A DNA stretch of 64,000 bases, from contig JBEKRC010000002.1 of NCBI GenBank assembly GCA_049997875.1, positions 2,755 through 66,754 of the forward strand, in the 5' to 3' direction. Positions 3,114 through 48,310 of this stretch are shown in pieces; position 1 is the first letter of the stretch; each line of letters opens with the position of its first letter. The stretch comes from Minisyncoccia bacterium. Its GTDB lineage: Bacteria; Patescibacteriota; Minisyncoccia; UBA6257; 2-01-FULL-56-20. A model generated the notes under the pieces. That model was given only the letters and a program-made list of their open reading frames with translations, ran no database searches and was not told where the DNA came from. A program made the translations under genes and the position numbers.

Positions 3114-3176
3114 TATCGTAAGTAGGGTATTCTATGGGTGGAAGCAGTAAAATTCATCGCCGATAGGCGGGAGGTA

Positions 3177-24712: not shown

Positions 24713-24727
24713 ACATTTGTAGTTAAA

Positions 24728-26906: not shown

Positions 26907-28158
26907 GTCTGATTTTTCTTCTGAAATACCACTCATATACTATCAATACCGATACATAACCAATTACAGTTGCTATTGCGGCACCATACATCCCAATGTG
27001 CGGAACTAGAAGAAAATCAAGTCCTAAATTCAATACTATTTGCATTATAAGAACAATCTGAGTAAATTGATATTTCTTGAGGGCATTAAAAATTGCAATG
27101 TAAAAGACAGTATAAGTGGCAAATATGCTTGCAATTAATAAAATGTCCAAAATTTGTGGCGCTTGCAAATAACCGTTCTTATAAAATAGCGGAATTAGTT
27201 TGTTTAAAACGATCATAGATAAACCTATAAGCAGAAGAGAAATGAAAAACAAAGTAGGCCGTTTCTTATTAAGATATTTCGAAATGTTTTCGGGATTATT
27301 TATATTTGCGCTGATATGCGTCAAAAAATAAGAATAGATGATATAGGTAGCGGTTATGGTTCCTTTAAAAATTTGATAAGCAAGATTATAGGTTGCGATG
27401 TCGCTGAAAGATGAATATATTCTCAGCGCTAGATTGTCTCCCCAGTTAACAAAAAAAGCTGCTGAGAGGCCAAAAACTTGCCATTTAGTAAAATGATAAA
27501 AAAGGAGAGTGATCTCTTTCTCAAAATGGAGAGGTAAAATCGAACGTCTATCAATGATGAAGAAATATACAACTAACAATAAGAGCGCAGAGAGCATGTA
27601 ACTTATAAAAACAGTTTCAATGTCAAGTACGTGTAATATATATAATCCAAATAAAATTAATATATTAAAAAGATTGAAGATTAATTCAAATAAAGCACTT
27701 GTCTTTTTTTTGTTTATTGCCAAAAAATAAGTAACAATATTTGTTTTTAAGGATAAACCAACAAATGCTAAGAATATATAGATTAAGTTATTTACTCTAA
27801 TTCCAATAAATTCAGCTAATTGATTTTTAAATAGAAAAGATAAGATTGAGAAAATTATTAATGAGCCGATAAAAAAGATTAATTGTGCCGAAAAAGTTTT
27901 GTTAATCTTTCCAGAAGCGAGACGTTCCTCATTCGAATAAATAATAAATGGAGCTTGTGTCGGACTTATCAATAAGGCAATAAAAAATAGGTTTACCATA
28001 AGCGCTAGCGAAAATGATGCAAATTCCCTAGGATCAATAAGCTTCGCTATCAAAAGTGGTAGCAGCAGACCCATTCCTTGTCCGATAACACTTATTAGTG
28101 CAAAGTGAAAAAAATCTCTCAATTCTATTACTTTTTTGAGAGCAAAATTATTTATCAT
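26890..28158 (-). CDS. Wzx-like polysaccharide flippase (MOP superfamily)
   Basis: About 12 TM helices in an MOP/Wzx-like topology. AT-rich. The 3' end overlaps the convergent GT4 gene by 17 nt. Confidence 0.6.
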   Translation of the reverse strand: MINNFALKKVIELRDFFHFALISVIGQGMGLLLPLLIAKLIDPREFASFSLALMVNLFFIALLISPTQAPFIIYSNEERLASGKINKTFSAQLIFFIGSLIIFSILSFLFKNQLAEFIGIRVNNLIYIFLAFVGLSLKTNIVTYFLAINKKKTSALFELIFNLFNILILFGLYILHVLDIETVFISYMLSALLLLVVYFFIIDRRSILPLHFEKEITLLFYHFTKWQVFGLSAAFFVNWGDNLALRIYSSFSDIATYNLAYQIFKGTITATYIIYSYFLTHISANINNPENISKYLNKKRPTLFFISLLLIGLSMIVLNKLIPLFYKNGYLQAPQILDILLIASIFATYTVFYIAIFNALKKYQFTQIVLIMQIVLNLGLDFLLVPHIGMYGAAIATVIGYVSVLIVYEWYFRRKIRPILNQ

Positions 28159-28166
28159 ATTTTTTA

Positions 28167-30173: not shown

Positions 30174-31233
30174 TAATTTTAATTGAGGTCAGGGTGGTAG
30201 TTGCAAAACTTTCTAGGGGTATCTTTAACTTTGTTCCGCTAAATTTGAACGATACATTCGTAAGATTGGCTTGAGCGTCATTTTCAAAATCTACTTGTGA
30301 TGTACATCCCTCAAAATATGTCGCTACTCCATGTGTAGCTTTTCCAAAAGTAAGATTTTTATTTCCATAATCTATCCAAATAGTACTGGTACCTATGGAT
30401 GTTCGGCCCGCAAGATTACCATCTACATATAATTGTATATACCCACCAGTGGTTGAGGGTTCATATACTGCCAAAGCAGAATGTTCTGTATTGAAGAAAA
30501 TTGGGGTAACAGGGTAACTCACAGAATAGAATGAACCTTTTGAATTATCCATTCTTCCTACTTGGAAACTAACGCCGTCTTTATTCTGTAAGAGTTCCCA
30601 ATTATAGTGCCCGACTATTTCTTGGAAATTATCAATGTTGTCTTGTGGTCGCCACTCGGCATACACCGTGAACGGGCCATTATCGAACTTTTTCGAAGAA
30701 CTGGGGAGTTGAAGCTGGCTCGTGCCGTCGAAGACTTCGCAGTCGTCAAAATGGAATGCGTTGCCAGTTAAATCTGAAGGAGTTGAGGTTGCGAAGTCCC
30801 ACGCATAATCCCATCTAACACTCGTGGGGTCGAAGTTTATTTGTGGGGGGATTATTGAGATGCCTTGCCCGCCGCTCACGCTCACTGTGACATTAGCGTT
30901 TTTAAGCACCACATTGGGGTTAAAGACGGTATTGATGATTCCGCTAAACTCGCGATAGGTACTGCCGTCAGTCGCCGTCATCGAGCCCGAGAGGTTGCGG
31001 GAGGGCTCAAGGTAGAAGGCTTTACTGGCGTCTGTATCGCCCAGAGTGCCGACATTGATTGTATAGGTCGCTGAGTAGCCAAAAGGCAGAAAGTTGATAT
31101 AAAGCACATAAAGCAGGAAGGCGAGCGGGATGGCGTACGCGGCAAAAGTGAGCCAAAACTCTGGTGTGCGCCAGCGCCCCTCAATCCAGGTCCCAATTTG
31201 TCTTATCTTATACATGGCCTTATTTTTATACAT
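30163..31233 (-). CDS. hypothetical membrane-anchored exported protein, possibly lectin/LamG-like beta-sandwich
   Basis: N-terminal TM helix and a beta-rich soluble domain. Overlaps the downstream GT-C gene by 11 nt, suggesting an operon. The fold call is a guess. Confidence 0.35.
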   Translation of the reverse strand: MYKNKAMYKIRQIGTWIEGRWRTPEFWLTFAAYAIPLAFLLYVLYINFLPFGYSATYTINVGTLGDTDASKAFYLEPSRNLSGSMTATDGSTYREFSGIINTVFNPNVVLKNANVTVSVSGGQGISIIPPQINFDPTSVRWDYAWDFATSTPSDLTGNAFHFDDCEVFDGTSQLQLPSSSKKFDNGPFTVYAEWRPQDNIDNFQEIVGHYNWELLQNKDGVSFQVGRMDNSKGSFYSVSYPVTPIFFNTEHSALAVYEPSTTGGYIQLYVDGNLAGRTSIGTSTIWIDYGNKNLTFGKATHGVATYFEGCTSQVDFENDAQANLTNVSFKFSGTKLKIPLESFATTTLTSIKINVH

Positions 31234-34877: not shown

Positions 34878-35452
34878 TGGAGATTATTACAATTATCAAG
34901 TGGATCTGCATTGTGATTGTGATACTGCTCGCCGTGGGCTTTGTCTTTGCGTTTTTTGTGGGCTGGTTCTACCACCCGTTCATGGCCGTGCTCGCCGTTG
35001 TCAAGTGGATTTGCATCGTGATTACGATACTGCTCGCCGGGGGCTTCGTCTTCGCGTTGTATAAGGGTTGGTCTTACCATCCACGTTATGAATTGGAAAA
35101 GCGGAAAGCGAAGAAAATATTCACCCTGCGTGATGCGGTGACGAAGGAACACTGGGAATCCATCGTGAGGAAATTCTCGCTGGGAACGCCGGAGGCCGCG
35201 CGGGCGGCCGTCATTGAGGCGGACGCGCTCGCGGATACGGTGCTCAAAAGCATGGAGATTCCGGGAACGCATCTTGCCGACCGGTTGTCCAACCTGGAGC
35301 CGGAGGAGGTTGCGTCGCTTGACCGGGTATGGCGGGCGCACCGCACGCGGAACGATCTCGTGCACACGCCGGGATTTGCACTGACCGCCAAGGAGGCGCA
35401 AAAGACGCTTGAGGACTACGAGGCTTTTCTCAAAGATCTGGGAGTGCTATAA
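34877..35452 (+). CDS. hypothetical membrane protein with internally duplicated TM segment
   Basis: ATG overlaps the upstream TAA (TAATG). Two near-identical TM repeats (IIKWICIVIVILLAVGFVFAFFVGWFYHP / VVKWICIVITILLAGGFVFALYKGWSYHP), then a soluble helical domain. Confidence 0.45.
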   Translation: MEIITIIKWICIVIVILLAVGFVFAFFVGWFYHPFMAVLAVVKWICIVITILLAGGFVFALYKGWSYHPRYELEKRKAKKIFTLRDAVTKEHWESIVRKFSLGTPEAARAAVIEADALADTVLKSMEIPGTHLADRLSNLEPEEVASLDRVWRAHRTRNDLVHTPGFALTAKEAQKTLEDYEAFLKDLGVL

Positions 35453-35459
35453 CGAAGCC

Positions 35460-36941
35460 ATGCCAAGAGCGGGGAAAATACAGATCATCAGGTACGCGCC
35501 GCCGCCGCCGGAGCTGCCGATTTACGGGCAGGTGGATCCGGCGGAGGTTTCTTTCTTTGGCCGCACGAACTACGTAGCGCAGCTTGAGGAGAAAAAGTTC
35601 GTTTTCGGCATCAAGCGGTACGACCGGCGCCGCCATCTTTACATTGTGGGAAAAAGCGGCGTGGGGAAATCAAAGTTGCTTGAACTTCTCATCCGCCAGG
35701 ACATTGCTTACGGCCACGGAATATGCCTCATGGATCCGCACGGCGACGTGATTGATGCGGTCATTGATTTTGTCCCGGAGAATCGGATTAACGACGTGGT
35801 GATCATAGATCCTACCGATTTAAGTTATCCGGCTTCGTTCAACCCCCTGCAGAACGTGGACCCCAGCTTCAAGCACCAGCTTGCGCAAGGGTTGATTGAG
35901 GTGATGGAGAAACAATTCGGCGCGAACTGGACGCCGCGCCTTGAGCACGTTTTCCGTTTCAGCGTGCTCGCGCTCCTTGATTACCCGCACGCCACGATGC
36001 GGGGGATGATCTCCATGCTCACGGACCGCAACTACCGCCAGAAGGTGGTGGAATATATTGAAGACGACATGGTGAAGCGCTTCTGGGCCATTGAGTTCGC
36101 CGACTGGTCGGAAAAATTTGATACGGACGCGATCATCCCGCTCGTGAACAAGCTCGGACAGTTCCTCTCCGACCCTTTGCTTCGGAACATTTTCGGCCAG
36201 AAGGAGAATAAGATAAATCTGGAGGAGTTGATGGAACAGAAAAAATTGATTTTCATCAATCTTTCCAAGGGCCGCCTCGGCGAGGAGAACTCAAGCTTTT
36301 TGGGCGCGATGTTCATCACGAAGATCAAACAGGCCGGCATGGCGCGCGCTTCCATACCCGAAAAGGACCGGCATGATTTTTATCTCTACGTGGATGAGTT
36401 TCACAATTTCGTTACGGAAACTTTTGAGAATATTCTTACCGAAGCGCGGAAGTACGCATTATGCCTTACGATCGCGCATCAGTACATGGGCCAGCTTATC
36501 CAGCGCGTGCAGGCGGCGGTCTTGGGCAACGTCGGAAGCCTCATCATCTTCCGCGTCGGCGGCGAGGATGCGGTTCACTTGAAGCCCGAGATGGCGCCGA
36601 TCTTTGACGTGAAAGACATGATCAACCTCGGCACGCAGGAGTTTTTCATCAAGATGACGATTGACGGCGAGAGCTACGATCCCTTTTCGGCGGAAACGCT
36701 CAAAGTGCTCCCTGCGCCCCACCGCTCGTTCCGGAAAGAAATCGTGGAACAGTCCCGGAAGAAGTACACCATCCCCGCCGACGCCGCAAAGAAGCTTATT
36801 CAGGAAGAGGAGGCCACGATCCTTCGGAGCGCACAGGAAAAAGCCATTATTGAAGGCAAGGCGAGAGGCGGCGGGGCGGCGGGCGCGGCGGGCGCGGCGA
36901 AAGAAGAGGCAGTAGACAAGACCCCCGAACCACTGATATAA
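35460..36941 (+). CDS. FtsK/HerA-superfamily P-loop ATPase (VirD4/TraD/VirB4-like 'T4SS DNA-binding domain' type)
   Basis: ATG at 35460. Walker A (GKSGVGKS), then LMDPHGD, then Walker B-like (DFYLYVDEFHNF). Paralogous to 48311..50311. No N-terminal TM segment. Confidence 0.7.
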   Translation: MPRAGKIQIIRYAPPPPELPIYGQVDPAEVSFFGRTNYVAQLEEKKFVFGIKRYDRRRHLYIVGKSGVGKSKLLELLIRQDIAYGHGICLMDPHGDVIDAVIDFVPENRINDVVIIDPTDLSYPASFNPLQNVDPSFKHQLAQGLIEVMEKQFGANWTPRLEHVFRFSVLALLDYPHATMRGMISMLTDRNYRQKVVEYIEDDMVKRFWAIEFADWSEKFDTDAIIPLVNKLGQFLSDPLLRNIFGQKENKINLEELMEQKKLIFINLSKGRLGEENSSFLGAMFITKIKQAGMARASIPEKDRHDFYLYVDEFHNFVTETFENILTEARKYALCLTIAHQYMGQLIQRVQAAVLGNVGSLIIFRVGGEDAVHLKPEMAPIFDVKDMINLGTQEFFIKMTIDGESYDPFSAETLKVLPAPHRSFRKEIVEQSRKKYTIPADAAKKLIQEEEATILRSAQEKAIIEGKARGGGAAGAAGAAKEEAVDKTPEPLI

Positions 36942-36948
36942 TATAGGC

Positions 36949-37128
36949 ATGTTCGTGCACCCGGTCCTTTTTGTCGTCGGCATTCTATTCGTTATTTATC
37001 TCATCGCGGCCGATGTTCATATGCATCGGCGCATCAAACATTTGGAAAAGACCGTAAGGAAGCTTGAGGGCATGAACAGCGTGGAACGTCCAAAGCATCG
37101 CTGGGAGGGAAAGGAAGATCTTTCATAG
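36949..37128 (+). CDS. hypothetical small membrane protein (59 aa)
   Basis: ATG at 36949. MFVHPVLFVVGILFVIYLIAADVH is a single TM helix, followed by a basic tail. Falls below the ORF-track cutoff. Confidence 0.25.
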   Translation: MFVHPVLFVVGILFVIYLIAADVHMHRRIKHLEKTVRKLEGMNSVERPKHRWEGKEDLS

Positions 37129-37146
37129 CGCGCCCAACGCCGCCCA

Positions 37147-38922
37147 ATGCCCGCCCTGACCCGCACGTGTCAAAACTGCAAATCCTCGTTCGCGATTGAG
37201 TCCGAGGATTTTGATTTCTATAAAAGAATAGCCGTCCCGCCGCCGACCTTCTGCCCGACGTGTCAGATACAGCGGCGGTTCTGCTTCAGGAATGAGCGGT
37301 CGTTCTATAAACGCAAAGAATCGTTGCGAGGGGAAGAGATTATTTCTTCCGTCTCTGCCGAAAAACCTTATAAGGTCTATGCGCAAAAAGATTGGTGGAG
37401 CGATGCGTGGGATCCGATGGTATATGGGCGGGAATATGATTTCAAAAAGCCGTTCTCGGCGCAATTCCGGGAATTGATGCGGGAGGTCCCGTGGCCAGCG
37501 CTCACGAACTGGAACGCAACGAACAGCGAGTATTGCAATTACACCACAGATAACAAAAACTGTTATCTTCTGATCGGTTCCGATTTCAACGAGGACTGCT
37601 CGTACGGTTACATGAACTTTCACTCCAAAGACAGCCTCGACCAACACTGGGTGGAGAAAGTTGAACTATCGTACGAGTGCATTGACGTGAATAATTGCTT
37701 TAAAGTGAGCTTTTGCCAAAACATACGTGACTGTACGGAATCGGTGTTTCTGTTTGATTGTACGAATTGTCATCATTGCGTGGGATGCGTGGGGCTTCGC
37801 AACAAGTCACATCACATTTTTAATGAGCCGTACGCGAGAGAGGAATTTGAAAAGAAATTCGCAGAACTTCGCCTTTCCACCCGTTCGGGCCTGGAAAAAA
37901 CCGGGAAAATATTCGCCGGCCTTAGATCAAAGTTCCCCCACAAATTTGCGGACATTTATAAATCGGTGAATTGCACGGGCGACAAAATACAGAACTCAAA
38001 GAACTGCCATGCGTGTTTTGACCTCCTGAACGAAGTGGAGGATTCAAAGAACGTGATCATTTCGGCGGTTTGCAAGGATGTGCATTGTGCGGATCATGTC
38101 GGGTGGGGAGGGGAACTTGTCTACGATTCAATCGTAGTGTTCTCCGGCGTAAAAAATGTCAGATTCTCGGCATTCATAAGGTCCTCTCAGGATATAACCT
38201 ATTCCATTTCATGTTCTTCCTCTTCCGATCTGTTCGGCTGTGTCGGGCTGAAGAATAAGCAGTATTGCATCCTGAACAAGCAATATTCCAAGGAGGCCTA
38301 TGGAACGCTCGTATCAAAGATCTTGAAGCATATGGATGAAATGCCCTATGTGGATTCCAACGGAGCGGTATATCGATTTGGGGAATTTTTTCCACCCGAA
38401 CTGTCACCCTTTGCTTACAACGAATCCATCGCCCAAGAATATTTTCCGCTCACAAAAAGCGAAGTGATGCGGCACAAGCTCGCCTGGCGGGAGGACGATG
38501 AAAAGCAGCACCATGTTTCCAAGATGGTGGAGGAACTTCCCGATGGCATCGCGGAAGTAACAGACGCGATTTTGGACGATATTATTGAGTGTGCGCACAA
38601 AGGGCAATGTGCGGACCAATGCACATCGGCTTTCCGGATCATTCCATCCGAGCTGCAGTTCCATAAGAGGTTGAATTTGCCTCTGTCCCGTCTTTGCCCG
38701 AATTGCCGATATTATGAACGGTTGCGGATGAGGAACCCAATGAAACTTTGGCATCGTGCCTGTGCATGCACGGGGACAGTTTCCTCAAATGGAGCATACG
38801 AGAACACGGTGTCGCATCAGCACGGGTCAAACAAGTGCCCCAATGAATTTGAAACCTCCTATGCCCCCGAGCGCTCCGAGATCGTTTACTGCGAGCAGTG
38901 CTATCAGGCGGAGGTCGCTTGA
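37147..38922 (+). CDS. Cys-rich tandem-paralog protein 1 (double zinc-ribbon-flanked CxxC-repeat protein)
   Basis: 591 aa with no signal peptide. N-terminal CQNC...FYKRIAVPPPTFCPTCQIQRR, central CxxCxGC repeats (FDCTNCHHCVGCVGLRNK; SCSSSSDLFGCVGLKNKQYCILNKQYSKEAY), and C-terminal LPLSRLCPNCRYYERLRMRNP...CPNEFETSYAPERSEIVYCEQCYQAEV. Confidence 0.8.
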   Translation: MPALTRTCQNCKSSFAIESEDFDFYKRIAVPPPTFCPTCQIQRRFCFRNERSFYKRKESLRGEEIISSVSAEKPYKVYAQKDWWSDAWDPMVYGREYDFKKPFSAQFRELMREVPWPALTNWNATNSEYCNYTTDNKNCYLLIGSDFNEDCSYGYMNFHSKDSLDQHWVEKVELSYECIDVNNCFKVSFCQNIRDCTESVFLFDCTNCHHCVGCVGLRNKSHHIFNEPYAREEFEKKFAELRLSTRSGLEKTGKIFAGLRSKFPHKFADIYKSVNCTGDKIQNSKNCHACFDLLNEVEDSKNVIISAVCKDVHCADHVGWGGELVYDSIVVFSGVKNVRFSAFIRSSQDITYSISCSSSSDLFGCVGLKNKQYCILNKQYSKEAYGTLVSKILKHMDEMPYVDSNGAVYRFGEFFPPELSPFAYNESIAQEYFPLTKSEVMRHKLAWREDDEKQHHVSKMVEELPDGIAEVTDAILDDIIECAHKGQCADQCTSAFRIIPSELQFHKRLNLPLSRLCPNCRYYERLRMRNPMKLWHRACACTGTVSSNGAYENTVSHQHGSNKCPNEFETSYAPERSEIVYCEQCYQAEVA

Positions 38923-38960
38923 AGTAGGCGGGGCCACATTAAAAAATCATTAAAAACTAT

Positions 38961-38989
38961 TTGACGTAGGATGCGGCGTTGCTATAATT
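38961..38989 (+). promoter_or_regulatory. Near-consensus sigma70 promoter
   Basis: TTGACG (38961-38966), 17-nt spacer, TATAAT (38984-38989). Confidence 0.55.
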
Positions 38990-38995
38990 AAGGAA

Positions 38996-39052
38996 ATCTT
39001 TGGGATTACCCACCGATCCCCGCCCCTTCACGGGGCGGGGTGACGATTTTTT
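38996..39052 (+). ncRNA. Candidate small RNA (about 55 nt), antisense to the 3' end of the MazF-like toxin gene
   Basis: The consensus promoter is followed within about 25 nt by an intrinsic terminator. It has a 9-bp GC stem (CCCCGCCCC-ttcac-GGGGCGGGG, 39018-39040) and a T6 tract (39047-39052). No plausible CDS lies between them. Confidence 0.4.
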
Positions 39053-39449
39053 GAGGATCATAAAATATAAGAAAAGCATCAATTATCTTTTGAAAGTTGC
39101 CCATGCTCAGCATGCCGACTTTTTGCGTAAGGCGTTTTGCGTCAAAAATTCTGATCTGACTGAGGATTGCCATACGTTTCTTCTCGCCATGTTGTATAGG
39201 AACATACCAGCTGCCAGTTTTTTGTTGTGTGGTGAGCGGAATTCCAAGAAAGGAATTGGCACTGAATTTTTTGAATACGAGAACCGGGCGCGTAAACCGC
39301 TTTCCCTTGCCGTAGATTTCTACGCCGATGTTCATGCCAATGCTGCACCACCAGATTTCTCCCTCCTTGAAGAGTTTTTGTGATGACAGGGTTTGTAATA
39401 TCACCGTCCTATGCCACCAGCCGAGAAGTGCGAGAAAATATTGTAGCAT
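39006..39449 (-). CDS. MazF/PemK-family toxin-like protein (orphan, opposite strand within the array)
   Basis: GEIWWCSIGMNIGVEIYGKGKRFTRPVLVFKK...GIPLTTQQK...LSQIRIFDAKRL follows the MazF/PemK/Kid pattern (G-D/E-I-W; R-P-x-L-V; conserved T; C-terminal RL). No antitoxin-sized ORF is adjacent. Confidence 0.55.
   Translation of the reverse strand: MLQYFLALLGWWHRTVILQTLSSQKLFKEGEIWWCSIGMNIGVEIYGKGKRFTRPVLVFKKFSANSFLGIPLTTQQKTGSWYVPIQHGEKKRMAILSQIRIFDAKRLTQKVGMLSMGNFQKIIDAFLIFYDPQKIVTPPREGAGIGG
39018..39052 (+). terminator. Rho-independent terminator (+ strand)
   Basis: Perfect 9-bp G/C stem, 5-nt loop, and a TTTTTT tail after a 6-nt spacer. Confidence 0.65.
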
Positions 39450-39521
39450 CTCGCCACCTTACCACACCGCCCATTAAAACTTTGTTAAATTTCCGACCTA
39501 CGAGCGTGTTATACTGTCTAT

Positions 39522-41300
39522 GTGGTGAACGAGACCAGAATTTGTCAGAACTGCAAACAGCGGTTTGCGATTGAATCGGGGGACTCCGCGTTTTACGAGA
39601 AGATGCAGGTGCCGCCGCCGACGTTTTGCCCGGACTGCCGGTTGCAACGGCGGATGGCGTTCCGCAATGAACGCACGCTCTACAAGCGGAAGTGTGAAGC
39701 CCCCGGGCACTCGGAGGAGGTAATCTCTGTCTTTTCGGCGGACAATCCGCAGCGGGTGTACGACCAGGAGGCGTGGTGGAGCGATTCCTGGGATCCCATG
39801 GCCTACGGGCGGGAACCCGATTTTGTGAAGCCGCTCATTCCGCAGATCATGGATTTATGGAAAGAGGTGCCGGACATCGCCCTCATGAACAACAACTGCG
39901 TGAACAGCGAGTATTGCAGCATCACCGAGGAGAACAAGAACTGCTATCTCGTGATCGGAGGGGATTTCAACGAAAACTCCTCTTATTCCTCGTTTATTTT
40001 CCACTGCAAGGAGACGCTTGATTGCCACTGGGTTTCCAAGAGCGAATTTTGTTACGAGAGCCTTGACTGCATCTCCTGCTCGCGGCTTTTCTTCAGCCAA
40101 TTCTGCGAAGGATGCTACGAGAGTGCGTTCCTCTTCAATTGCAAAAACTGCCACGATTGCTTCGGATGCACCAATTTGAACAACAAATCATACTGCATCT
40201 GGAACGTTCAGTATTCAAAAGAAGATTACGAAACTAAGATAAAGGAATTTGATCTGGGGAGTTCCGCCGCCATTTTCCAATTCAGGGAAAGAGCGAAAAA
40301 GGAGCAGCTTTTATATCCTCGGCGATTTGCGCGCGTGCTCCGGTCGGTCAATGCTACCGGCGACAATATTGAAGGCGGAAAAAACTGCAAGCGATCGTTT
40401 GAAATTTTTGATGGAGCCGAAGATTGCGCCTATCTATGGCTCATCTATTCGAAGGTGCGGGATTGTTACGACACCGATCATTCCGGCTTGAGCTCCGAAT
40501 TGTGCTGCGATTCGTCAACCATATATCCGGGGAGCCGCATTCTTTTCTCACGTTTCATCCGTTCCTGCAAGGATACGTATTACAGCTATAACTGCCACAA
40601 CTGCTCGGATATTTTTGGCTGCGTCGGACTTCGGAATAAAAAATACTGCGTTCTCAATAAACAATATTCGGAGAAGGAATATAGAACGCTGGTGCCAAAA
40701 CTCGTCGCACACATGAACAGCGCGCCGTACATCGATACCAAGGGAAGAATCTATAAATACGGCGAATTTTTCCCCGTTGAACTTTCGCCCTTTGCCTATA
40801 ACGAAACGGTTTCCCAAGAGCTTTTCCCGTTGACCAAGGGAGAAGCTGCAGCGCGCGGATATCAATGGCGCGAGCCAGAGAAAAGAGACCGCGATATAGC
40901 CAATGCGGTTTCCGGCGTGCCAGATCATATTAAAGATACCGACGATTCTATTCTTTCAAAGATCATAAAATGTGCTCATGCTGATTCCCATTGCTCGCAT
41001 CAATGCACGAAAGCATTCCGGCCGATCGCATCAGAACTTCAATTTTACAAACATGTAAAAATCGCCTTCCCTCGGTTATGTCCCAACTGCCGCCACTATG
41101 AGCGGATCGTAAAGAGGAACCCATTGAAGCTTTGGCATAGGAAGTGCATGTGTGGGGGAACACAATCAAAAAACTATGCAAACGCAGCGCCGCATTTTCA
41201 CAAGAACAATCCGTGCGGAAACGAATTTGAGACGACCTATGCCCCCGACCGGCCGGAGATCGTCTACTGCGAGCAATGTTACCAGGCAGAGGTCGTATAA
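39522..41300 (+). CDS. Cys-rich tandem-paralog protein 2
   Basis: GTG start. 592 aa with the same three-part architecture (N-ribbon CQNC..CPDCRLQRR; central CxxC repeats; C-ribbon CPNCRHYER...YCEQCYQAEVV). Conserved WWSDSWDP and GEFFPVELSPFAYNET blocks. Confidence 0.8.
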   Translation: MVNETRICQNCKQRFAIESGDSAFYEKMQVPPPTFCPDCRLQRRMAFRNERTLYKRKCEAPGHSEEVISVFSADNPQRVYDQEAWWSDSWDPMAYGREPDFVKPLIPQIMDLWKEVPDIALMNNNCVNSEYCSITEENKNCYLVIGGDFNENSSYSSFIFHCKETLDCHWVSKSEFCYESLDCISCSRLFFSQFCEGCYESAFLFNCKNCHDCFGCTNLNNKSYCIWNVQYSKEDYETKIKEFDLGSSAAIFQFRERAKKEQLLYPRRFARVLRSVNATGDNIEGGKNCKRSFEIFDGAEDCAYLWLIYSKVRDCYDTDHSGLSSELCCDSSTIYPGSRILFSRFIRSCKDTYYSYNCHNCSDIFGCVGLRNKKYCVLNKQYSEKEYRTLVPKLVAHMNSAPYIDTKGRIYKYGEFFPVELSPFAYNETVSQELFPLTKGEAAARGYQWREPEKRDRDIANAVSGVPDHIKDTDDSILSKIIKCAHADSHCSHQCTKAFRPIASELQFYKHVKIAFPRLCPNCRHYERIVKRNPLKLWHRKCMCGGTQSKNYANAAPHFHKNNPCGNEFETTYAPDRPEIVYCEQCYQAEVV

Positions 41301-41307
41301 TTGAAGC

Positions 41308-42954
41308 ATGACGGCCACGTGCACCTCGTGCGGCAAGGAGATTCAAGGAGTCGCGGAAGACACCGCATTTCTTGAGAGATTCGGCGTCTCGCATCCCGGG
41401 GAATGCGCGTTTTGCCTATGGCGACGACTGCTTGCGTTCTGGGTCTTCGGCAAATTCAGAAAGACGAAGTCCGCGCTCTCCGGCAAGACGATCATCACCA
41501 CGTTCGGAGAGGAGGTAAAATTCCCGCTCTACGACCGTACCGAATGGGTTTCGGATGCGTGGGACCCGCTCGCCTACGGGCAGGAATACGATCCAAGTCG
41601 TTCGTTCTTTGCGCAATTCAAAGAACTGCAGGATCGCGTGCCGCACCCGCAGCAATCAGGAACGAACAATCTTCGCTCCGATTGGTGCGACGACGTGTGG
41701 AGTTCAAAGGATTGTTATCTCATCCGATCGCTCCTGGGGTGCGAGAATTTGTATTACGGCTACCGTGACCTCCGCTGCAAGAACTCCGTTGACCTTGTTT
41801 TCTGCTTTGACGTGGAATCGTCGTATGACTGCGCGTACTGTTTCAAGGATTACAAAGTGCGGCATGCCTTTGATGCGCGGGACAGCATGGAAAGCGCATT
41901 CCTCTACGATTGTCGGAATGTGCAGAATTGCTTTATGTGCTGGAACCTTCGCAACAAGCGGTATCACATCTTGAACAAGCCCTACTCAAAAGAGGCGTAT
42001 TTTGAGGAATTGAAGAAATACGATCTGCGTTCGCGGAAAAGCGTTGATGCGTTGAAAACGGAGTTCGCGCAGATCCTCGCAAAAGAAGCAGTCCATCGGG
42101 TGAATTACAACGTGAAAACGGTCAGTTCCCTCGGCAATTTCCTTGAAGAATGCAAGAACTGTTATGATTGCTATTTCATCCAATTTGCCGAGAACAACCG
42201 GCACATGTTCCGCGGGCTCTACATGAAGGACTCCATCTATGGCGTTGGTACGATCGTAGAAAAAGGTTTGTATTCGGTCGTGGACAATGAGTGCTACGAC
42301 ACCATCGCCACCATGCATTGCGACAAATGCCGCTATTCCGCCTATTTGGATTTCTGCGAAGAATGCGAGTATTGCTTCGGGTGCGTGAGTTTGCGGAAGA
42401 AGAAATATTGCATTTTGAACAAGCAGTACTCCGAAGCGGAGTATCGCGCGTTATTACCGAAGATAAAAGAATCGATGGTGAAAATAGGGGAGTGGGGCAA
42501 ATTTTTCCCCTATGCTATGGCGTACGGCGGCTATAATTTTTCCCACGCGAACGCCTTCTTTCCCTCTATGAAGAAAGAGGTTGAAAAGATAGGCGGGATT
42601 TGGGAAGAGGTGCGCGAAACTGCAGCCGCCGACGGCATCTCGGGCAGCGCATTGCCCGATCGCATTGACGACGTATCGGACGATATGCCGCAGAAGCAGA
42701 TCATTTGTCCCAGAACCGGTTGGCGATTCAATATCGCTCCCGGTGAACTCGCGTTCTACAAGTCACACGGTATTCCACTGCCGCAATATCATTTTGATGT
42801 CCGCATTCTGGAGCTTTTCAAACCACTCACATGGATACGGCCGTTCGTCGCGAACTGCGTTTTCTGCAAGAAAGAAACCACACACTATTATCCACCCGAA
42901 GCCGGATATCAAAAGATAGCATGTGAGGATTGCTATATTAAGGAGGTATCATAA
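41308..42954 (+). CDS. Cys-rich tandem-paralog protein 3 (most diverged; terminal ribbons partly degenerate)
   Basis: 548 aa. N-terminus CTSC...CAFC, C-terminus CPRTGWRF...CVFCKK...CEDCY. The central CxxC repeat blocks are conserved (CRNVQNCFMCWNLRNKRYHILNKPYSKEAY). Confidence 0.75.
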   Translation: MTATCTSCGKEIQGVAEDTAFLERFGVSHPGECAFCLWRRLLAFWVFGKFRKTKSALSGKTIITTFGEEVKFPLYDRTEWVSDAWDPLAYGQEYDPSRSFFAQFKELQDRVPHPQQSGTNNLRSDWCDDVWSSKDCYLIRSLLGCENLYYGYRDLRCKNSVDLVFCFDVESSYDCAYCFKDYKVRHAFDARDSMESAFLYDCRNVQNCFMCWNLRNKRYHILNKPYSKEAYFEELKKYDLRSRKSVDALKTEFAQILAKEAVHRVNYNVKTVSSLGNFLEECKNCYDCYFIQFAENNRHMFRGLYMKDSIYGVGTIVEKGLYSVVDNECYDTIATMHCDKCRYSAYLDFCEECEYCFGCVSLRKKKYCILNKQYSEAEYRALLPKIKESMVKIGEWGKFFPYAMAYGGYNFSHANAFFPSMKKEVEKIGGIWEEVRETAAADGISGSALPDRIDDVSDDMPQKQIICPRTGWRFNIAPGELAFYKSHGIPLPQYHFDVRILELFKPLTWIRPFVANCVFCKKETTHYYPPEAGYQKIACEDCYIKEVS

Positions 42955-42959
42955 AGGCA

Positions 42960-44666
42960 ATGAACGCGGAAACCAGAGCCTGCCAAAACTGCAAACAGCA
43001 ATTCGCCGTTGATCCGGAGGATTTCCAGTTCTACGGGAAGGTTAATGTTCCGCCGCCGACCTTTTGCCCGGACTGCCGTTTTGAGCGGCGGCTTTTGTTT
43101 TGGAACGCGATCAATCTTTATAAACGACCCTGCGATTTATGCAAGAGATTCAACGTTTCGGTGTACGCGCCCGACGCCCCCTACACCGTGTACTGTCCCT
43201 TGTGCTGGTGGAGCGACAAGTGGGATCCGCTCACGTACGGACGGGAGTACGATTTCAGACGTCCCTTTTTTGAACAGCTCAACGAGCTGTGGCACGCGGC
43301 GCCGTTGTGCGGCTTGTCCATGGATCTTCCTTCAGCGAGATCCTCGCCGTATAACCACGACGCTGGCTATCTGAAAAATTGCTATTTTCTTTTTCACGCC
43401 GATACGTGCGAGGATTGCGCCTACGGCTATTTCTTGGGCAAATGCCGGATGCTTTTTGATTGCACGGCCATATTGCAGAGCGAATATGGATACGATGCTA
43501 TGCACTCATACAAGACAAATAGGTGCATCGGATCGCGGGACCAGCTCTCGGAGTCGTTGGAGTGTCTCTTCTGCCGCGATTGTCAGGGCTGCCAGAATTG
43601 TTTCGCCTCCGCGAACCTGAAGGGCCAGAAATATTACGCGTGGAACAAACCGCTTTCCAAACAAGAATATCTTGCGGAAATCGGTAAGTATGATTTGGGA
43701 TCCTACCGCGTTTACCGATCGCTCCAAGAAAAAGCGGCAGAGCACTGGAAAACGCAAATTCCGAAATCGGAATACAACGAATTCGTGAAAAATTGCACCG
43801 GCTCAAACGTGTTCTTTTCAAAAAACGCCAAGGATTGCATTGAGGTATCCGAGGTGGAAGATGGCCGGTATTGCTATCGCATGTTCGAGCCGACCAATAA
43901 GGATTGCTACGATATTTCCATGTGGGGCAATAACCTTTCGCTGTCGTACGACAGCTGCGTGGTGGGGGAGAATTCCACGCAGCTCCGGTTTACCCACGAA
44001 TCCGGCCTCAATCTTACCGATGCGGAATATTGCCGATTGTCCACGGGCGGCTCCCACCACTTCGGTTGCGTTTCGATCAAAAAAGGGGAATACCGGATTT
44101 TCAACAAGGTGTATTCCGCGAAAGAGTACGACGAACTTACAAAAAGGATTCGGAAACACATGGATGACATGCCATATACGGATGCGCGGGGCAATGTCTA
44201 TCGCTATGGCGAATTTTTTCCGCCGGAAATGTCGCCTTTTGCGTATAATGAAACGCTGGCACAGAATTTCTTTCCGCTCACGAGGGAGCAAGTCGCCGCG
44301 AAGAAATACGCATGGCGAGATCTTGAGGTAAAAGATATGGAAGCGACCATATCGGCTGCCGACCTCCCCGATCACACGAAAGATGTTACTGATGGAATTC
44401 TCAAGGAAATCATAAAATGTGCAACCTGCAGCCGCTCCTATCGGATCATAGAAATGGAACTGGCATTCCTTCGGCAGATGAATCTGCCTTTGCCGCGCCG
44501 TTGCCCCTTCTGCCGGATAAACGAGAAGTTGAATATCTGGGTGAAGACCAATGAACGCAACCGGCGCGTATGTGCGGAGTGCGGCGCCGCCATGGAGTCA
44601 AAGTATCGGGAAGACGAAGCGCCGGCGGTATATTGCCGGAAGTGTTATTTGCAAAAGATAATGTAG
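42960..44666 (+). CDS. Cys-rich tandem-paralog protein 4
   Basis: 568 aa. CQNCKQQFAVDPEDFQFYGKVNVPPPTFCPDCRFERR...; C-terminus LPLPRRCPFCRINEKL...CAECG...YCRKCYLQKIM. Confidence 0.8.
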   Translation: MNAETRACQNCKQQFAVDPEDFQFYGKVNVPPPTFCPDCRFERRLLFWNAINLYKRPCDLCKRFNVSVYAPDAPYTVYCPLCWWSDKWDPLTYGREYDFRRPFFEQLNELWHAAPLCGLSMDLPSARSSPYNHDAGYLKNCYFLFHADTCEDCAYGYFLGKCRMLFDCTAILQSEYGYDAMHSYKTNRCIGSRDQLSESLECLFCRDCQGCQNCFASANLKGQKYYAWNKPLSKQEYLAEIGKYDLGSYRVYRSLQEKAAEHWKTQIPKSEYNEFVKNCTGSNVFFSKNAKDCIEVSEVEDGRYCYRMFEPTNKDCYDISMWGNNLSLSYDSCVVGENSTQLRFTHESGLNLTDAEYCRLSTGGSHHFGCVSIKKGEYRIFNKVYSAKEYDELTKRIRKHMDDMPYTDARGNVYRYGEFFPPEMSPFAYNETLAQNFFPLTREQVAAKKYAWRDLEVKDMEATISAADLPDHTKDVTDGILKEIIKCATCSRSYRIIEMELAFLRQMNLPLPRRCPFCRINEKLNIWVKTNERNRRVCAECGAAMESKYREDEAPAVYCRKCYLQKIM

Positions 44667-44740
44667 AATTTTTTAATGTTTCTTGTCGGTTTTAAGGGGC
44701 TATCCTTTCTATTGCTTGGTTGCCTGGCAAAAGGAGTAAA

Positions 44741-44752
44741 ATGGAGGGGTAA
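44741..44752 (+). other. Three-codon mini-ORF (ATG GAG GGG TAA) with its own AAGGAG SD, immediately upstream of paralog 5
   Basis: AAGGAG is 6 nt upstream of ATG 44741, the stop is at 44750-44752, then a GGAGGGG-like SD precedes ATG 44757. Confidence 0.2.
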
Positions 44753-44756
44753 GGGC

Positions 44757-46481
44757 ATGGTTGCCGAGGCCAAAACCTGTGGGGCGTGCAAGGGGGAGTT
44801 CGCGCTTGAACCGGAGGATCTTGCATTCTACGGGAAGTTCGGCGTGCAGGCGCCGAAGATGTGCCCGCGGTGCCGCGCGCAGCGGAGGATGGCGTTCCGA
44901 AACGAGCGGGTGTTCTACAAACGAAAATGTGATAAGTGCGGGCGCGAGGTGGTTTCCATGTACAGTCCGAACAAACCGTACATAGTGTATTGTTACGAAT
45001 GCTGGTTCGCAGACGATTGGGATGCATTGAGCTACGGGACGGAGTACGATCCCGCGCGGCCGTTCATGGAACAGTTCCGCGAACTTTGGGAAAAGGTGCC
45101 GAAGGTGGCGCTCGTCTACATGCGGAGCGTGCGTTCGGAATACGTGAACATCTCGGCGGACAACAAGGATTGCTATATGCTTGTGGAGTCATCCAACAAC
45201 GAGGGATGTGTCCATTGTTATTGGATCCAGCAGTGCCGCGATCTCGTGGATGTTTCGTTCTCGCACCAGACGGAGCTTTCGTATGAATGCGACGATTGCT
45301 TCAATTGTTACGGACTGCAATATTCAAAAGGATGCCACGATTGCCGCAATAGTTATTTCTTGTTTGATTGCGTGGGATGCTCGGACTGCATCGGTTGCGC
45401 GAACCTCCGCAGCAAGCAGTACCATATTTGGAACGAGCCGCATTCCAAAGAGGAATACGAAGAGTTCCTCGCGGAGATGAAACTTGATACGCACGCCGGG
45501 GTTGAAGCGACGCACAGAAAGTTTGAGGAATTCTTGAACGCCCAGCCGCACAAATTCGCGGAGATCCTGAACGCGCCGGGCTGCACGGGGAATTACATCA
45601 AGAATGCCAAGAACTGCCGGCAGGTCTTCCATTGCTACGACGCGGAGGATGCGAAATACGGCATCCATGTGTGGCGCGACGCAAAGGACTGCATGGATGT
45701 GGATACGGCGGGCCGCGGTGCTCGTCTGATCTACAACTCCATCAATTCGGGCATTGAGGTTTCAAACTATATCGCCTGTGCGCAGTGCTGGACGTGTTCG
45801 TTCATGCAATATTCTTATTCCTGTTTCAATTGCAATCACTGTTTCGGTTGCGCGGGACTCCGGAAAAAGGACCGCTGCGTTCTGAATCGCGAATACGATA
45901 AGGCGTCGTACGAGCGGCTGCGCAGCGCCATCGTCGCCGAAATGAAGTCAAAAGGGGAATACGGCGAATTCTTTCCGGTCGCGATCAATACGTTCGGCTA
46001 CAACGAGAGCGCAGCACAGGAACAGTTCCCGCTCACGAAGGCGGAAGCGCTCGCGCAGGGATACAAATGGGAGGACGCCCATCGCGGAACCTTTGGGAAG
46101 GGAACCATCACGTGGGACAAGGTTCCCGATCACTATGACGGCTTTGATCCCACGCGGCATGTCTTTACGTGTGCGAATTGCAAACGGAATTATCTCATAA
46201 TCCCAAACGAAGCAATGTTCTATAAGAAGCTTGCGATCCCCGTGCCGCGCCTGTGTCCCGATTGCCGCCACACGCGCCGCTTCGCCGCCCGCGGGCCGAA
46301 CCGCGTTTCACGACAGCACTGCGAATGCGCGGGCGCGTCATCGGCCAACAAACGGTACCGCAACACGCGAGCTCATGCCCACGCGGACGCTCCATGCCCC
46401 AACGAATTTTGGACGAGCTATGCTGCGAACGACGAGCGGATCGTCTACTGCGAAGAGTGCTATAACGCAGAGGTGGCGTAG
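44757..46481 (+). CDS. Cys-rich tandem-paralog protein 5
   Basis: ATG at 44757 after GGAGGGG. 574 aa. MVAEAKTCGACKGEF...CPRCRAQRR, and a C-terminus CPDCRHTRRF...CPNEFWTSYAANDERIVYCEECYNAEVA. Confidence 0.8.
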   Translation: MVAEAKTCGACKGEFALEPEDLAFYGKFGVQAPKMCPRCRAQRRMAFRNERVFYKRKCDKCGREVVSMYSPNKPYIVYCYECWFADDWDALSYGTEYDPARPFMEQFRELWEKVPKVALVYMRSVRSEYVNISADNKDCYMLVESSNNEGCVHCYWIQQCRDLVDVSFSHQTELSYECDDCFNCYGLQYSKGCHDCRNSYFLFDCVGCSDCIGCANLRSKQYHIWNEPHSKEEYEEFLAEMKLDTHAGVEATHRKFEEFLNAQPHKFAEILNAPGCTGNYIKNAKNCRQVFHCYDAEDAKYGIHVWRDAKDCMDVDTAGRGARLIYNSINSGIEVSNYIACAQCWTCSFMQYSYSCFNCNHCFGCAGLRKKDRCVLNREYDKASYERLRSAIVAEMKSKGEYGEFFPVAINTFGYNESAAQEQFPLTKAEALAQGYKWEDAHRGTFGKGTITWDKVPDHYDGFDPTRHVFTCANCKRNYLIIPNEAMFYKKLAIPVPRLCPDCRHTRRFAARGPNRVSRQHCECAGASSANKRYRNTRAHAHADAPCPNEFWTSYAANDERIVYCEECYNAEVA

Positions 46482-46488
46482 CGAAGAC

Positions 46489-48264
46489 ATGGGACCCGAA
46501 ACGAAAACCTGCCAAAATTGCAAACAGTCGTTCGTCATTGACCCGGAGGATTTTCGGTTCTACGAAAAGATCGGCGTGCCGCCGCCCACCTGGTGCCCCG
46601 AGTGCCGGATGATACGGCGGATGGTGTGGAGAAATGAGCGCTCGTGGCATCGGAGAAGATGTGATGCGACGGGAAAGAACATACTCTCCATGTTTGCGCC
46701 CGATATGCCGTACAAAGTTTACGAACAGACGTTCTGGAAAAGTGATGCGTGGGATCCGCTCTCCTACGGTCGCGACTATGATTTTTCGAAACCGTTCTTC
46801 ACGCAGTTTCAGGAATTGCTCGTTGCCGTTCCTCATCCCAATCTCATCCAGAAAAATGCGGTGAATAGTGAATATTCCAACTATACCGTCAATGTCAAAA
46901 ATTGTTATTTCTTCGGAGGGGCTGCCACCGCCGAAGACAGTGGATACGGCTTCCCGCCGAACGTTCGGATCCGGGAATGCTTTGATGTTCACACGATGGG
47001 GGATGCGGAATCCTGTTATGATTCCGTTGATATTGAACAGTCGCAGGGGTTACGATTTTCGCAAAGTTGCGTCGGGTGCAGCAATTCGTATTTTCTTTAT
47101 GATTGCCGGAATTGCACCGATTGTTTTGGTTGCGTCGGGTTGCGCAACAAACAGTTTTATATATTCAATGAGGCACATTCCCGGGAGGAATATGCCAAAA
47201 GGCTCACTTCATTTATGCCAGGGACTTTCTCTGGCATCGCAGCCGCCCGTGAAAAGTTCAATGAGCTGAAGCTCGGATTCCCGAGGAAATACGCCGCAAT
47301 CCTGAAATCGGAGCGGGTGACCGGCGACGACATTGTGAATGCGCGCGATTGTACCTACTGCTTTGACGCAAAGAGAGAGGTGCAAAATTGCAAGTATTCG
47401 TTCCGTGTCCTTGATAACACAAAAGATGGCTATGATGGTCTCACGGCATGGGACGGTACAGAACTATTCTATGAAGTGATGAGCGTCACGGGGCAGCGGG
47501 TTATTGGCTCGGCCTGTATCTGGGGAGGATTTGACGTGATTCATTCTTACAATTGCTTTGATTGCAATAATGTCGTGGGGTGCATCGGATTGCACAACAA
47601 GTCGTACTGTATTTTCAACAAACAATACGGCGAGGGAGAGTATAAGGAACTTTCGCCGCGGATTCTCGCTCAGATGGATGAAGTACCCTATGTTGATCAA
47701 CGAGGAAGATCATACGGGCACGGCGACTTCTTCCCGCCAGATCTTGTGCCGTTTGCCTACAATGAAACCTTGGCACAAGATTATTTTCCAAAGACGAAAG
47801 AGGAAGCAGTTGCGATGGGATTTCGGTGGCGCGAGACCGAAGATAAAAAATATCAGATTACCATGAAGGTTGAAAAACTTCCAGATGACATTCATGCAGT
47901 TTCAGATTCCATACTCAATGAGGTGATTGAGTGCGCGCACGAGGACAAGTGCAACGATCACTGCGCGAAAGCGTTTCGCATTGTGCCGCAAGAACTCCAA
48001 TTTCTTAGAAAGATGAACGTACCCTTGCCGCGATTGTGTCCATCGTGTCGACAGATGGAACGGCTCCGACTTAAAAATCCGCTTCGGCTGTGGCATCGAC
48101 GCTGTGAGTGCAATGGTTCTCAATCTGCGAATGGGAGATATAGAAATGTCGCCGCGCACTCCCACGGTAAAAGTTTGTGTCCGACGGAATTTGAAACACC
48201 GTATGCGCCTGACCGTTCAGAGATTGTCTACTGCGAGCGGTGCTACAACGCGGAAGTGGTGTAG
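46489..48264 (+). CDS. Cys-rich tandem-paralog protein 6
   Basis: ATG at 46489. 591 aa. MGPETKTCQNCKQSFVIDPEDFRFYEKIGVPPPTWCPECRMIRR, and a C-terminus LPRLCPSCRQMERLRLKNP...CPTEFETPYAPDRSEIVYCERCYNAEVV. Confidence 0.8.
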   Translation: MGPETKTCQNCKQSFVIDPEDFRFYEKIGVPPPTWCPECRMIRRMVWRNERSWHRRRCDATGKNILSMFAPDMPYKVYEQTFWKSDAWDPLSYGRDYDFSKPFFTQFQELLVAVPHPNLIQKNAVNSEYSNYTVNVKNCYFFGGAATAEDSGYGFPPNVRIRECFDVHTMGDAESCYDSVDIEQSQGLRFSQSCVGCSNSYFLYDCRNCTDCFGCVGLRNKQFYIFNEAHSREEYAKRLTSFMPGTFSGIAAAREKFNELKLGFPRKYAAILKSERVTGDDIVNARDCTYCFDAKREVQNCKYSFRVLDNTKDGYDGLTAWDGTELFYEVMSVTGQRVIGSACIWGGFDVIHSYNCFDCNNVVGCIGLHNKSYCIFNKQYGEGEYKELSPRILAQMDEVPYVDQRGRSYGHGDFFPPDLVPFAYNETLAQDYFPKTKEEAVAMGFRWRETEDKKYQITMKVEKLPDDIHAVSDSILNEVIECAHEDKCNDHCAKAFRIVPQELQFLRKMNVPLPRLCPSCRQMERLRLKNPLRLWHRRCECNGSQSANGRYRNVAAHSHGKSLCPTEFETPYAPDRSEIVYCERCYNAEVV

Positions 48265-48310
48265 TAACGCTGGCAGAATCGCCAAAATCGTGGTATCATA
48301 AGAGCAGAAT

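Follow-up and report, generated by a model that had tools for sequence, protein, structure and literature searches.

We analysed a 64,000-nucleotide stretch of the genome of a Minisyncoccia bacterium (GenBank assembly GCA_049997875.1, contig JBEKRC010000002.1, positions 2,755 to 66,754), which we call the window and whose first letter is position 1, and within it the short plus-strand interval 38961-39052, which lies opposite the 3' end of a gene for a toxin of the PemK/MazF family. From comparison with related genomes we regard it as nearly certain that this interval is a real, conserved gene for a structured small RNA (sRNA), and the same comparisons make it probable that the predicted RNA is the antitoxin of the convergent toxin. 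MazF and PemK are textbook toxins that are restrained by a protein partner; a whole branch of the MazF family appears to have instead a small structured RNA gene, set with near-nucleotide precision at the toxin stop. The original prediction for this interval, made from the letters of the sequence and their open reading frames (ORFs), was a consensus promoter immediately followed by an intrinsic terminator and an sRNA of about 55 nt antisense to an orphan toxin gene; that reading, which saw in the layout a likeness to antisense-RNA control of toxins, is supported, and the promoter-driven RNA gene is conserved, with a predicted size of about 58 nt. The features concerned are the following.

38961-38966, plus strand: -35 hexamer TTGACG, read from the sequence, with TTGAC at the equivalent site in related loci
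38980-38988, plus strand: extended -10 element TGcTATAAT (TG at 38980-81, TATAAT at 38983-38988), from sequence reading and a promoter scan
38995-39052, plus strand: predicted sRNA of about 58 nt, its start placed at -10 plus 7 and its end at the U-run
39001-39012, plus strand: hairpin P1, UGGG-AUUA-CCCA, 4 bp, from folding and the comparative alignment
39013-39017, plus strand: linker CCGAU, with G and A opposite the GA in the UGA 3' of P2, from the alignment
39018-39040, plus strand: hairpin P2, a 9-bp perfect GC stem with loop UUCAC, from sequence and covariation
39041-39052, plus strand: 3' flank UGACGA followed by U6 (39047-39052), the probable transcript end, from sequence and alignment
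39449..39006, minus strand: toxin gene, 147 aa, PemK/MazF family, from Pfam, fold and alignment
39456-39464, minus strand: candidate extended -10 element TGgTAAGGT of the toxin gene, a motif kept in the closest relatives

Promoter and structure of the predicted RNA

A scan of the window showed that the sigma70 promoter of the RNA gene matches the consensus at 11 of 12 positions, with a spacer of 16 nt; its hexamers are the TTGACG and TATAAT of the original prediction, which had given the spacer as 17 nt. The site had also been ranked rightly among the best sigma70 matches of the window, since only three sites reach 11/12 on both strands together. By simple arithmetic about one site of this quality is expected per window by chance, so that the match taken alone is no evidence, and it is conservation in other genomes that takes the promoter and the hairpin out of the realm of chance.

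The predicted RNA consists of a short A/U leader, P1, the linker CCGAU, P2, UGACGA and U6, and a 62-nt RNA of this region folds into two hairpins at -28 kcal/mol (z = -2.9). The perfect 9-bp G/C hairpin reported at the outset is P2, the arms of which are CCCCGCCCC at 39018-39026 and GGGGCGGGG at 39032-39040, but only a single hairpin had then been implied and P1 had been overlooked. The T6 tract likewise exists at 39047-39052; judged as a terminator made of a GC stem plus a U-run, however, the element has its stem while U6 begins only 6 nt past it, after UGACGA, and for this reason the terminator scan made no call. The U-run is confined to the plus strand, none following the P2 hairpin on the opposite strand, as had been claimed, but P2 is a conserved structural element and more than the terminator for which it was taken. 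In relatives that carry variant 2 of the RNA (see below) a U-run lies within 2-3 nt of P2, and others have a second hairpin and a U-run. The start at -10 plus 7 agrees with that of the Campylobacter jejuni RNA CJpv3, whose mapped transcription start site (TSS) also lies 7 nt after TATAAT. Two further structures were considered and rejected: a helix that closes the 5' leader on the 3' tail is present in the fold of the window RNA but, by eye, is not kept in relatives, and a hairpin with T-run at 39102-39124, a candidate for another 3' end, is not conserved in one of the related loci (L011).

Conservation and covariation in related loci

The comparative set comprised 80 genome loci with homologues of the 147-aa toxin, among which there are 81 toxin genes. 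In 20 of the 80 loci, whose toxins share only 36-73% identity with that of the window, the 3' end of the toxin gene carries the core TTGGGNNNNCCCACCGAT (RNA sense). Read in the RNA sense, these loci share the order TTGAC-N16-18-TAnnnT, about 8 nt, P1, ACCGAU, P2 and UGA, and 3' of UGA all of them have either a U-run or a further GC hairpin and a U-run. P2 is variable in relatives both in sequence and in length (stem of 6-13 bp, 15-34 nt).

This variability is compensatory. A set of 22 sequences trimmed by hand has a P2 helix of 11 pairs, two flanking pairs included, of which 10 have changed on both sides; the set scores 0.40 for covariation, whereas shuffles score 0.10 (0 of 500 reach the real value) and slid partners at most 0.11. 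With 42 sequences, whose alignment was fitted to a covariance model that favours its structure, the score is 0.55 against 0.15 in shuffles (again 0 of 500) and at most 0.13 for slid partners; 93.5% of the cells of this alignment pair, and double compensatory changes are seen in 8 of the 9 pairs of P2. P1 has three pairs that are invariant or nearly so, and an innermost pair that covaries (GC in 33 sequences, CG in 6 and AU in 1). G.U pairs exceed A.C pairs by 26 to 7, a bias that assigns the conserved structure to the promoter strand.

A covariance model built from the 22 sequences (R1) gave 41 matches at E < 0.01 in 516 kb and a second-round model (R2) gave 48 matches in 44 of the 80 loci, with E-values that are rough owing to a shortened model calibration. 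Relative to the toxin, all matches of both models are on the other strand and immediately beyond its 3' end, and the sole match in the window is 38992-39048 (+), with 69.7 and 65.8 bits. Promoters follow the same pattern: counting those of at least 10/12 in the RNA orientation no more than 170 nt after the toxin stop, we found one at 60 of the 81 toxin genes; for the opposite strand the figure is 11 of 81, and for random regions 11 of 337. Most often the -10 element and the toxin stop are 56-65 nt apart, so that the 3' end of the RNA normally meets the toxin stop codon.

The genes that neighbour the toxin and its RNA differ in nearly all 80 loci. Ten contigs with an identical toxin are also 100% identical over the 241 bp that cover promoter and RNA (38880-39120) and are for that reason uninformative for conservation, whereas another genome, with a toxin of only 73% identity, matches part of the same interval at 96%. 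One locus (L024) has two toxin paralogues about 1.1 kb apart, each with its own RNA (2218-2271 and 3335-3390, both minus strand).

Some loci depart from the usual arrangement. Two tandem RNA units stand behind one toxin in L076 (3372-3490), L090 (405-554) and L075 (3311-3439), all on the minus strand, which is reminiscent, by analogy, of the repeat arrays of type III systems. In three relatives the toxin is damaged and the RNA gene intact: L015 has an in-frame TGA (3241-3243) at the invariant Trp81, L089 another in-frame TGA (3118-3120) and L026 a frameshift at about 3233-3309, and these could represent toxin decay with the antitoxin retained, or UGA recoding. In L047 (966-2150) and L072 (2926-4428) the toxin frame continues without a stop for over 1 kb into the gene that follows, which is DNA polymerase III delta'-like in one of them and NeuB-like in the other; the stop could have been lost by chance, the two genes could be fused, or the assembly could be at fault.

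Variant RNAs and toxin-blind scans

The remaining 36 of the 80 loci have no model match, but most of them show the same layout with another sequence of P1 and linker, according to a classification made by pattern and by eye. Variant 2 reads AUGGC-UUCG-GCC UCCGA [P2] GAUUUUU and variant 3 UUGCC-N4-GGCA; for variant 2, RNAalifold finds compensatory changes in 9 of 11 pairs.

A scan of metagenomes for the 18-base RNA core, made without regard to the toxin, returned 20 stretches. Only six matches, in five stretches, combine promoter, P2 and a high model score, and all six have a convergent toxin homologue alongside. The other 14 of the 20 pattern matches are chance occurrences in GC-rich coding DNA, with neither promoter nor P2 hairpin nor adjoining toxin homologue, and in viral contigs a 14-base core gave 85 stretches of which the best scored 23.7 bits, which we likewise take as chance matches. 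Three related metagenome contigs (L094, L100 and L102) carry a different palindrome with the same 18 bases, ATCGGTTTGGGAAATCCCACCGAT; with no toxin homologue and no model match at E <= 0.001, it is unrelated to the RNA family.

The convergent toxin and the absence of a protein antitoxin gene

That the toxin is MazF/PemK-like, as first read, is borne out by Pfam (PF02452, E = 4.8e-11, PemK being the only Pfam family found) and by its predicted fold. The AlphaFold model has a mean pLDDT (predicted local distance difference test) of 80 and its best fold matches are the MazF proteins of Staphylococcus aureus, Bacillus subtilis, Mycobacterium tuberculosis and Escherichia coli, with a TM-score of up to 0.76 on the target. 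In an alignment with B. subtilis MazF the invariant RP and T motifs fall on the catalytic Arg25 and Thr48, and the model has an extra N-terminal helix formed by residues 2-20. With a modelled MazF fold and both catalytic residues aligned, the toxin is apparently active. The PADLOC defence models gave no match to it.

The overlap of the RNA with the last codons of the toxin, also foreseen, can be described closely. The TAA stop of the toxin (39008-39006) is the complement of the P1 loop bases 39006-39008, so that the last 15 toxin codons are the complement of the predicted RNA, and in the window the toxin ORF extends 47 nt into the RNA gene. The terminator scan found no terminator on the toxin strand before the RNA gene. 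The toxin is an orphan, as originally described, in that the gap between its start and the divergent gene measures 72 nt, which leaves no room there for an antitoxin gene, and no conserved small ORF was found upstream of the toxin in the 80 loci.

The candidate -10 element of the toxin gene stops 7 nt short of the A of its ATG, and this spacing is conserved in the closest relatives, which suggests, from the sequence, that the toxin mRNA is leaderless. Promoters that seem to end 6-7 nt before start codons are present at 36913-36949 (+), 39456-39464 (-) and 39503-39524 (+): the 11/12 promoter at 36913 precedes the ATG at 36949 of a 59-aa ORF, and a TATACT precedes the GTG at 39522 (+), a pattern that suggests leaderless mRNAs in the window. 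We had also considered that the linker, as CCACC or CCUCC, might act as an anti-Shine-Dalgarno sequence on the ribosome binding site of the toxin, and rejected this: the AAGGUGG concerned is better read as the leaderless extended -10 element, and the idea is further weakened by toxin 5' regions that differ between clades.

Searches for known RNA families

Rfam has no family at gathering score in the whole window, and a search of 38850-39550 at E <= 10 returned noise only and no pemK motif RF02913; in 20 related loci at gathering score Rfam found only tRNAs and RNase P RNA elsewhere, and no RF02913. The pemK RNA motif RF02913 (Weinberg et al. 2017) is listed in Rfam as cis-regulatory. It resembles the window RNA in being a structured RNA tied to pemK genes and differs in that its model has no match here. 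We note that this motif is said to lie upstream of pemK in Firmicutes. ARAGORN finds no tRNA gene in the whole 64 kb, and a tRNA or tmRNA fragment, or an attachment site, was rejected on the same grounds. In our literature search we found no description of the RNA family in the Candidate Phyla Radiation (CPR).

Proposed action of the RNA

In the reading that we favour, the RNA is an antitoxin that acts in an antisense, type I-like manner. Its strong promoter would keep the RNA in excess over a weakly expressed and probably leaderless toxin mRNA. The RNA gene reaches or runs into the toxin stop, and no terminator lies there on the toxin strand, so that any transcript of the toxin must end with an exact complement of the RNA; the RNA would pair with this end, as in type I systems that overlap at the 3' end, and the pairing would expose the toxin mRNA to double-strand cleavage and 3' decay. 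In the window, pairing would also block translation from finishing through the last 15 codons, and no active toxin would accumulate. Were the module or its expression lost, the RNA would decay and the toxin would be made. Recognition of the RNA by a protein, possibly the toxin, is suggested as well by its invariant unpaired nucleotides, and antisense pairing and direct toxin binding could operate together. We chose the type I-like reading because it is the only one that explains the universal convergent, abutting geometry and because the one studied relative, on a Campylobacter plasmid, is classed as type I; that antisense pairing is the main mechanism of the antitoxin RNA is a proposal for which we see about equal chances of being right or wrong.

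Among the traits of type I systems, a convergent RNA gene in contact with the end of the toxin gene, which makes the two transcripts complementary, is found for all 48 R2 matches, and the RNA has, by computation, its own promoter (60 of 81 toxin genes) and a U-run or terminator hairpin at its 3' side. The typical small hydrophobic membrane peptide is not found, the toxin being a 147-aa soluble RNase of MazF fold.

Several observations weigh against the antisense reading. A cis-antisense RNA needs no sequence conservation, whereas outside the toxin ORF there is little or no variation in UUGG, CCAC, G, GA and A, which fits recognition by a protein better than pairing. The loops of P1 and P2 are of stable tetraloop type and would make poor kissing loops, and the commonest geometry provides complementarity to the 3' untranslated region (UTR) of the toxin only and not to its coding part. 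To these can be added that the Campylobacter RNA is not detectably homologous by covariance model, that termination at a U6 lying 6 nt beyond P2 is a prediction, and that the 42-sequence alignment is biased towards the structure of the model to which it was fitted.

Alternative explanations

The conserved stretch might be protein-coding, either as a C-terminal tail of the toxin or, on the plus strand, as the ORF 39000-39383 (127 aa), a mirror-encoded antitoxin that would begin with TTG 5 nt after the predicted TSS. In the protein alignment a tail of the form ..HPAS..EAGIGG is indeed shared by several homologues, some of them continuing to GGKSQ; GGKSQ, however, corresponds to window nucleotides read through the stop (TAA TCC CAA), so that the conservation is in the DNA and not in the protein, and most homologues end about 15 residues earlier, at about 133 aa, without any tail. 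P2 changes in length by non-multiples of 3 (15-34 nt) with substitutions that are pairwise compensatory, a stop ends the plus-strand frame at 12 codons in L018 and at 25 in L014, the tail is the low-confidence part of the toxin model (pLDDT 44-61), and neither tail nor mirror ORF has a Pfam match. Coding is thus very improbable, and the conserved toxin tail (residues ~131-147; 39006-39056, minus strand) is, on the nucleotide evidence, the translated complement of the sRNA gene. Gene callers place a spurious 34-aa ORF at 39006-39056. We give practically no weight to the view that an accidental promoter-like match lies beside the terminator of the upstream plus-strand gene 37147-38922. It could draw on the roughly one 11/12 promoter match expected per window, on promoter- and terminator-like sites that are no commoner in the region than in shuffles and on a hairpin 96 nt past the stop of that gene, but the element travels with the toxin and not with the upstream gene, in loci whose neighbours nearly all differ. 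With strong covariation, promoter enrichment, 100% identity over 241 bp in 10 contigs and 96% identity beside a toxin that is 73% identical, the chance reading is refuted by the comparative data. It is unlikely, too, that the RNA is real and yet no antitoxin, serving rather as a 3'-end or terminator module or a device of transcription interference, which would just insulate the toxin gene from its neighbours, or as a target or cofactor of the RNase. A terminator-like P2 with its U-run, an RNA that is always at a gene end and a toxin strand without a terminator of its own would all suit such a role. A plain terminator, though, needs neither a near-consensus promoter of its own, such as exists at 60 of 81 toxin genes, nor a conserved P1 and linker; the one-to-one tie to a single toxin family would stay unexplained, an RNase with its catalytic residues and no other antidote needs a neutraliser, and the Campylobacter plasmid precedent points to an RNA antitoxin.

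The main alternative, which we think less likely than not, keeps the antitoxin role of the RNA but gives it a type III-like mechanism: once folded, the RNA would itself bind the dimer of the MazF-fold toxin and serve as a structured inhibitor or pseudo-substrate, and convergence would provide tight linkage only. It would account for the near-invariant unpaired nucleotides: alignment columns U9, U10, G11, C62, A63, G68, A111 and A115 are invariant or nearly so, the linker keeps its G in 41 and its A in 36 of 42 sequences, and the UGACGA flank 3' of P2 keeps G in 39, A in 42 and A in 41. P2 is moreover extended, beside P1, by conserved non-canonical pairs (G.A in 41 of 42, A.G in 33, with C-G in 6, and U.U in 32), and the CCGA...GA flanks recur in the sequence-divergent variant 2. 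The groove of the MazF dimer binds single-stranded RNA, the best fold matches include 4MDX, and type III toxins are said, from the structure of ToxIN, to share the Kid/MazF fold. The tandem RNA units of L076, L090 and L075 would also be in keeping with binding, as would the toxin mRNA of the window clade, which looks leaderless and so offers no 5' UTR for control by an RNA. What direct binding leaves without obvious reason is the strict convergent, abutting geometry in all loci examined, and the RNA is single-copy in most loci and neither upstream nor co-oriented as in systems of the ToxIN type.

At 39009-39043 (+), alignment columns 60-111, there is a k-turn-like signature that comprises the P1 C-G pair, a 3-nt (A/U)CC bulge, G.A, A.G, U.U and P2. 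On our reading of the published rules for k-turns this resembles a signature of protein-binding type; the motif is unusual in that the non-bulged strand ends as a free 3' tail, a three-strand version. It is possible, though we would not call it likely, that the two views meet in a hybrid of type I and type III, in which the k-turn-like CC-GA...GA junction angles the two hairpins and the RNA binds the MazF dimer, maybe also acting as antisense. Such a hybrid, if true, would give a classic family of type II toxins an antitoxin of type III-like character, convergently encoded and present as a single copy, and the logic of the hybrid would be common to candidate-phyla bacteria, Rickettsiales-like and Bdellovibrio-like genomes and Campylobacterota plasmids.

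Genomic surroundings

An array of Cys-rich paralogues, five or more in number, each about 550-600 aa long and with CxxC ends, occupies much of 35409-50311 (37147-38922, 39522-41300, 41308-42954, 42960-44666 and 44676-46481); Pfam found no family for them beyond a weak treble-clef zinc finger, and the toxin-RNA module sits between the first and second. VirD4/TrwB-like coupling ATPases at 35409-36941 and 48311-50311 bracket this array, and the whole of 35409-50311 may be a mobile or secretion-related island. Another part of the window, from about 24000 to 31000, has a GC content of 29-34% as against about 54% elsewhere. Its genes include those for PMT_2 glycosyltransferases, for a Laminin_G_3 protein and for a protein of polysaccharide synthesis, and this part is probably a surface-glycan island gained by horizontal transfer.

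Comparison with known toxin-antitoxin systems

The branch of toxins described here spans many lineages of Patescibacteria, as well as metagenome-assembled genomes labelled Rickettsiales, Alphaproteobacteria and Bdellovibrionales, although such taxonomic labels may be unreliable, and it also spans plasmids of Campylobacter, Helicobacter and Nitratiruptor. Annotations of "orphan" MazF in these genomes are on this account incomplete. For an RNA that is absent from Rfam, a consensus and a structure are now provided, and the question of whether the RNA neutralises a true MazF by pairing, by binding or by both is set up for a clean experiment.

The toxin-RNA module shares traits with several established types of system. 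The MazEF and PemIK systems of type II have the same toxin family and fold with its catalytic Arg and Thr, but at the window toxin there is no MazE or PemI gene and the protein has the extra helix of residues 2-20. In type III systems (ToxIN, CptIN and TenpIN) the antitoxin is a repeat array, upstream of and co-oriented with the toxin, which processes it. The likeness lies in an RNA that neutralises an endoribonuclease of Kid/MazF-like fold and in the tandem RNA units of a few relatives of the window; the window RNA differs from type III in being convergent and downstream, with a promoter of its own and a single copy in most loci, and among the 50 best fold matches listed and the best solved sequence relatives of the toxin all are of MazF/EndoA/PemK type, with no ToxN. 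Of type I systems, txpA/RatA and bsrG/SR4 of B. subtilis come closest in layout, being convergent, with a strong promoter for an RNA that complements the 3' end of the toxin mRNA. Their toxins, however, are small membrane peptides and their overlaps 75-120 nt, whereas the window has a 147-aa RNase of MazF fold and an RNA with deeply conserved unpaired nucleotides.

A nearer precedent is found on plasmids. By tblastn, PemK/MazF genes are present on Campylobacter, Helicobacter and Nitratiruptor plasmids, among them the toxin gene at 30634-31038 of pVir from C. jejuni 81-176 (E = 6e-13), which in a pairwise comparison is 42% identical to the window toxin over an 88-aa core (E = 1e-21) and has no adjoining protein antitoxin annotated. 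On the strand opposite this toxin Dugar et al. (2013, PLoS Genet, Table S12) report the sRNA CJpv3, which runs from 31119 to 31043 (77 nt) and has a mapped TSS and a Northern signal. CJpv3 starts 7 nt after TATAAT and has a GC hairpin at its end, which lies 5 nt beyond the stop codon of the toxin, and the plasmids of Helicobacter suis and Nitratiruptor have the same arrangement of toxin and RNA. A type I system on pVir, in which cjrA is the antisense sRNA antitoxin and cjpT the proteic toxin, is attributed to Shen et al. (2016, Mol Microbiol 101:909) by two citing papers (PMC10470494, PMC7826846); by our own inference cjrA is probably CJpv3, and cjpT the pVir PemK gene. Model R2 has no match at the CJpv3 site, so that the two RNAs share a layout and not a demonstrable homology, and CJpv3 is unlike the window RNA in its 77 nt, in its three hairpins and in being without the UUGGG..CCCACCGAU core. 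It also belongs to the plasmid of a cultivated pathogen, whereas the window RNA is on a CPR chromosome. A PemK/MazF toxin with a convergent sRNA antitoxin is therefore of a kind known from one plasmid example, of which the window element is a new and distant member. New within the literature searched are the breadth of the family across candidate phyla and small-genome lineages, the consensus and structure of the RNA and the explanation of the toxin pseudo-tail, by which a single obscure Campylobacter example becomes a broad family.

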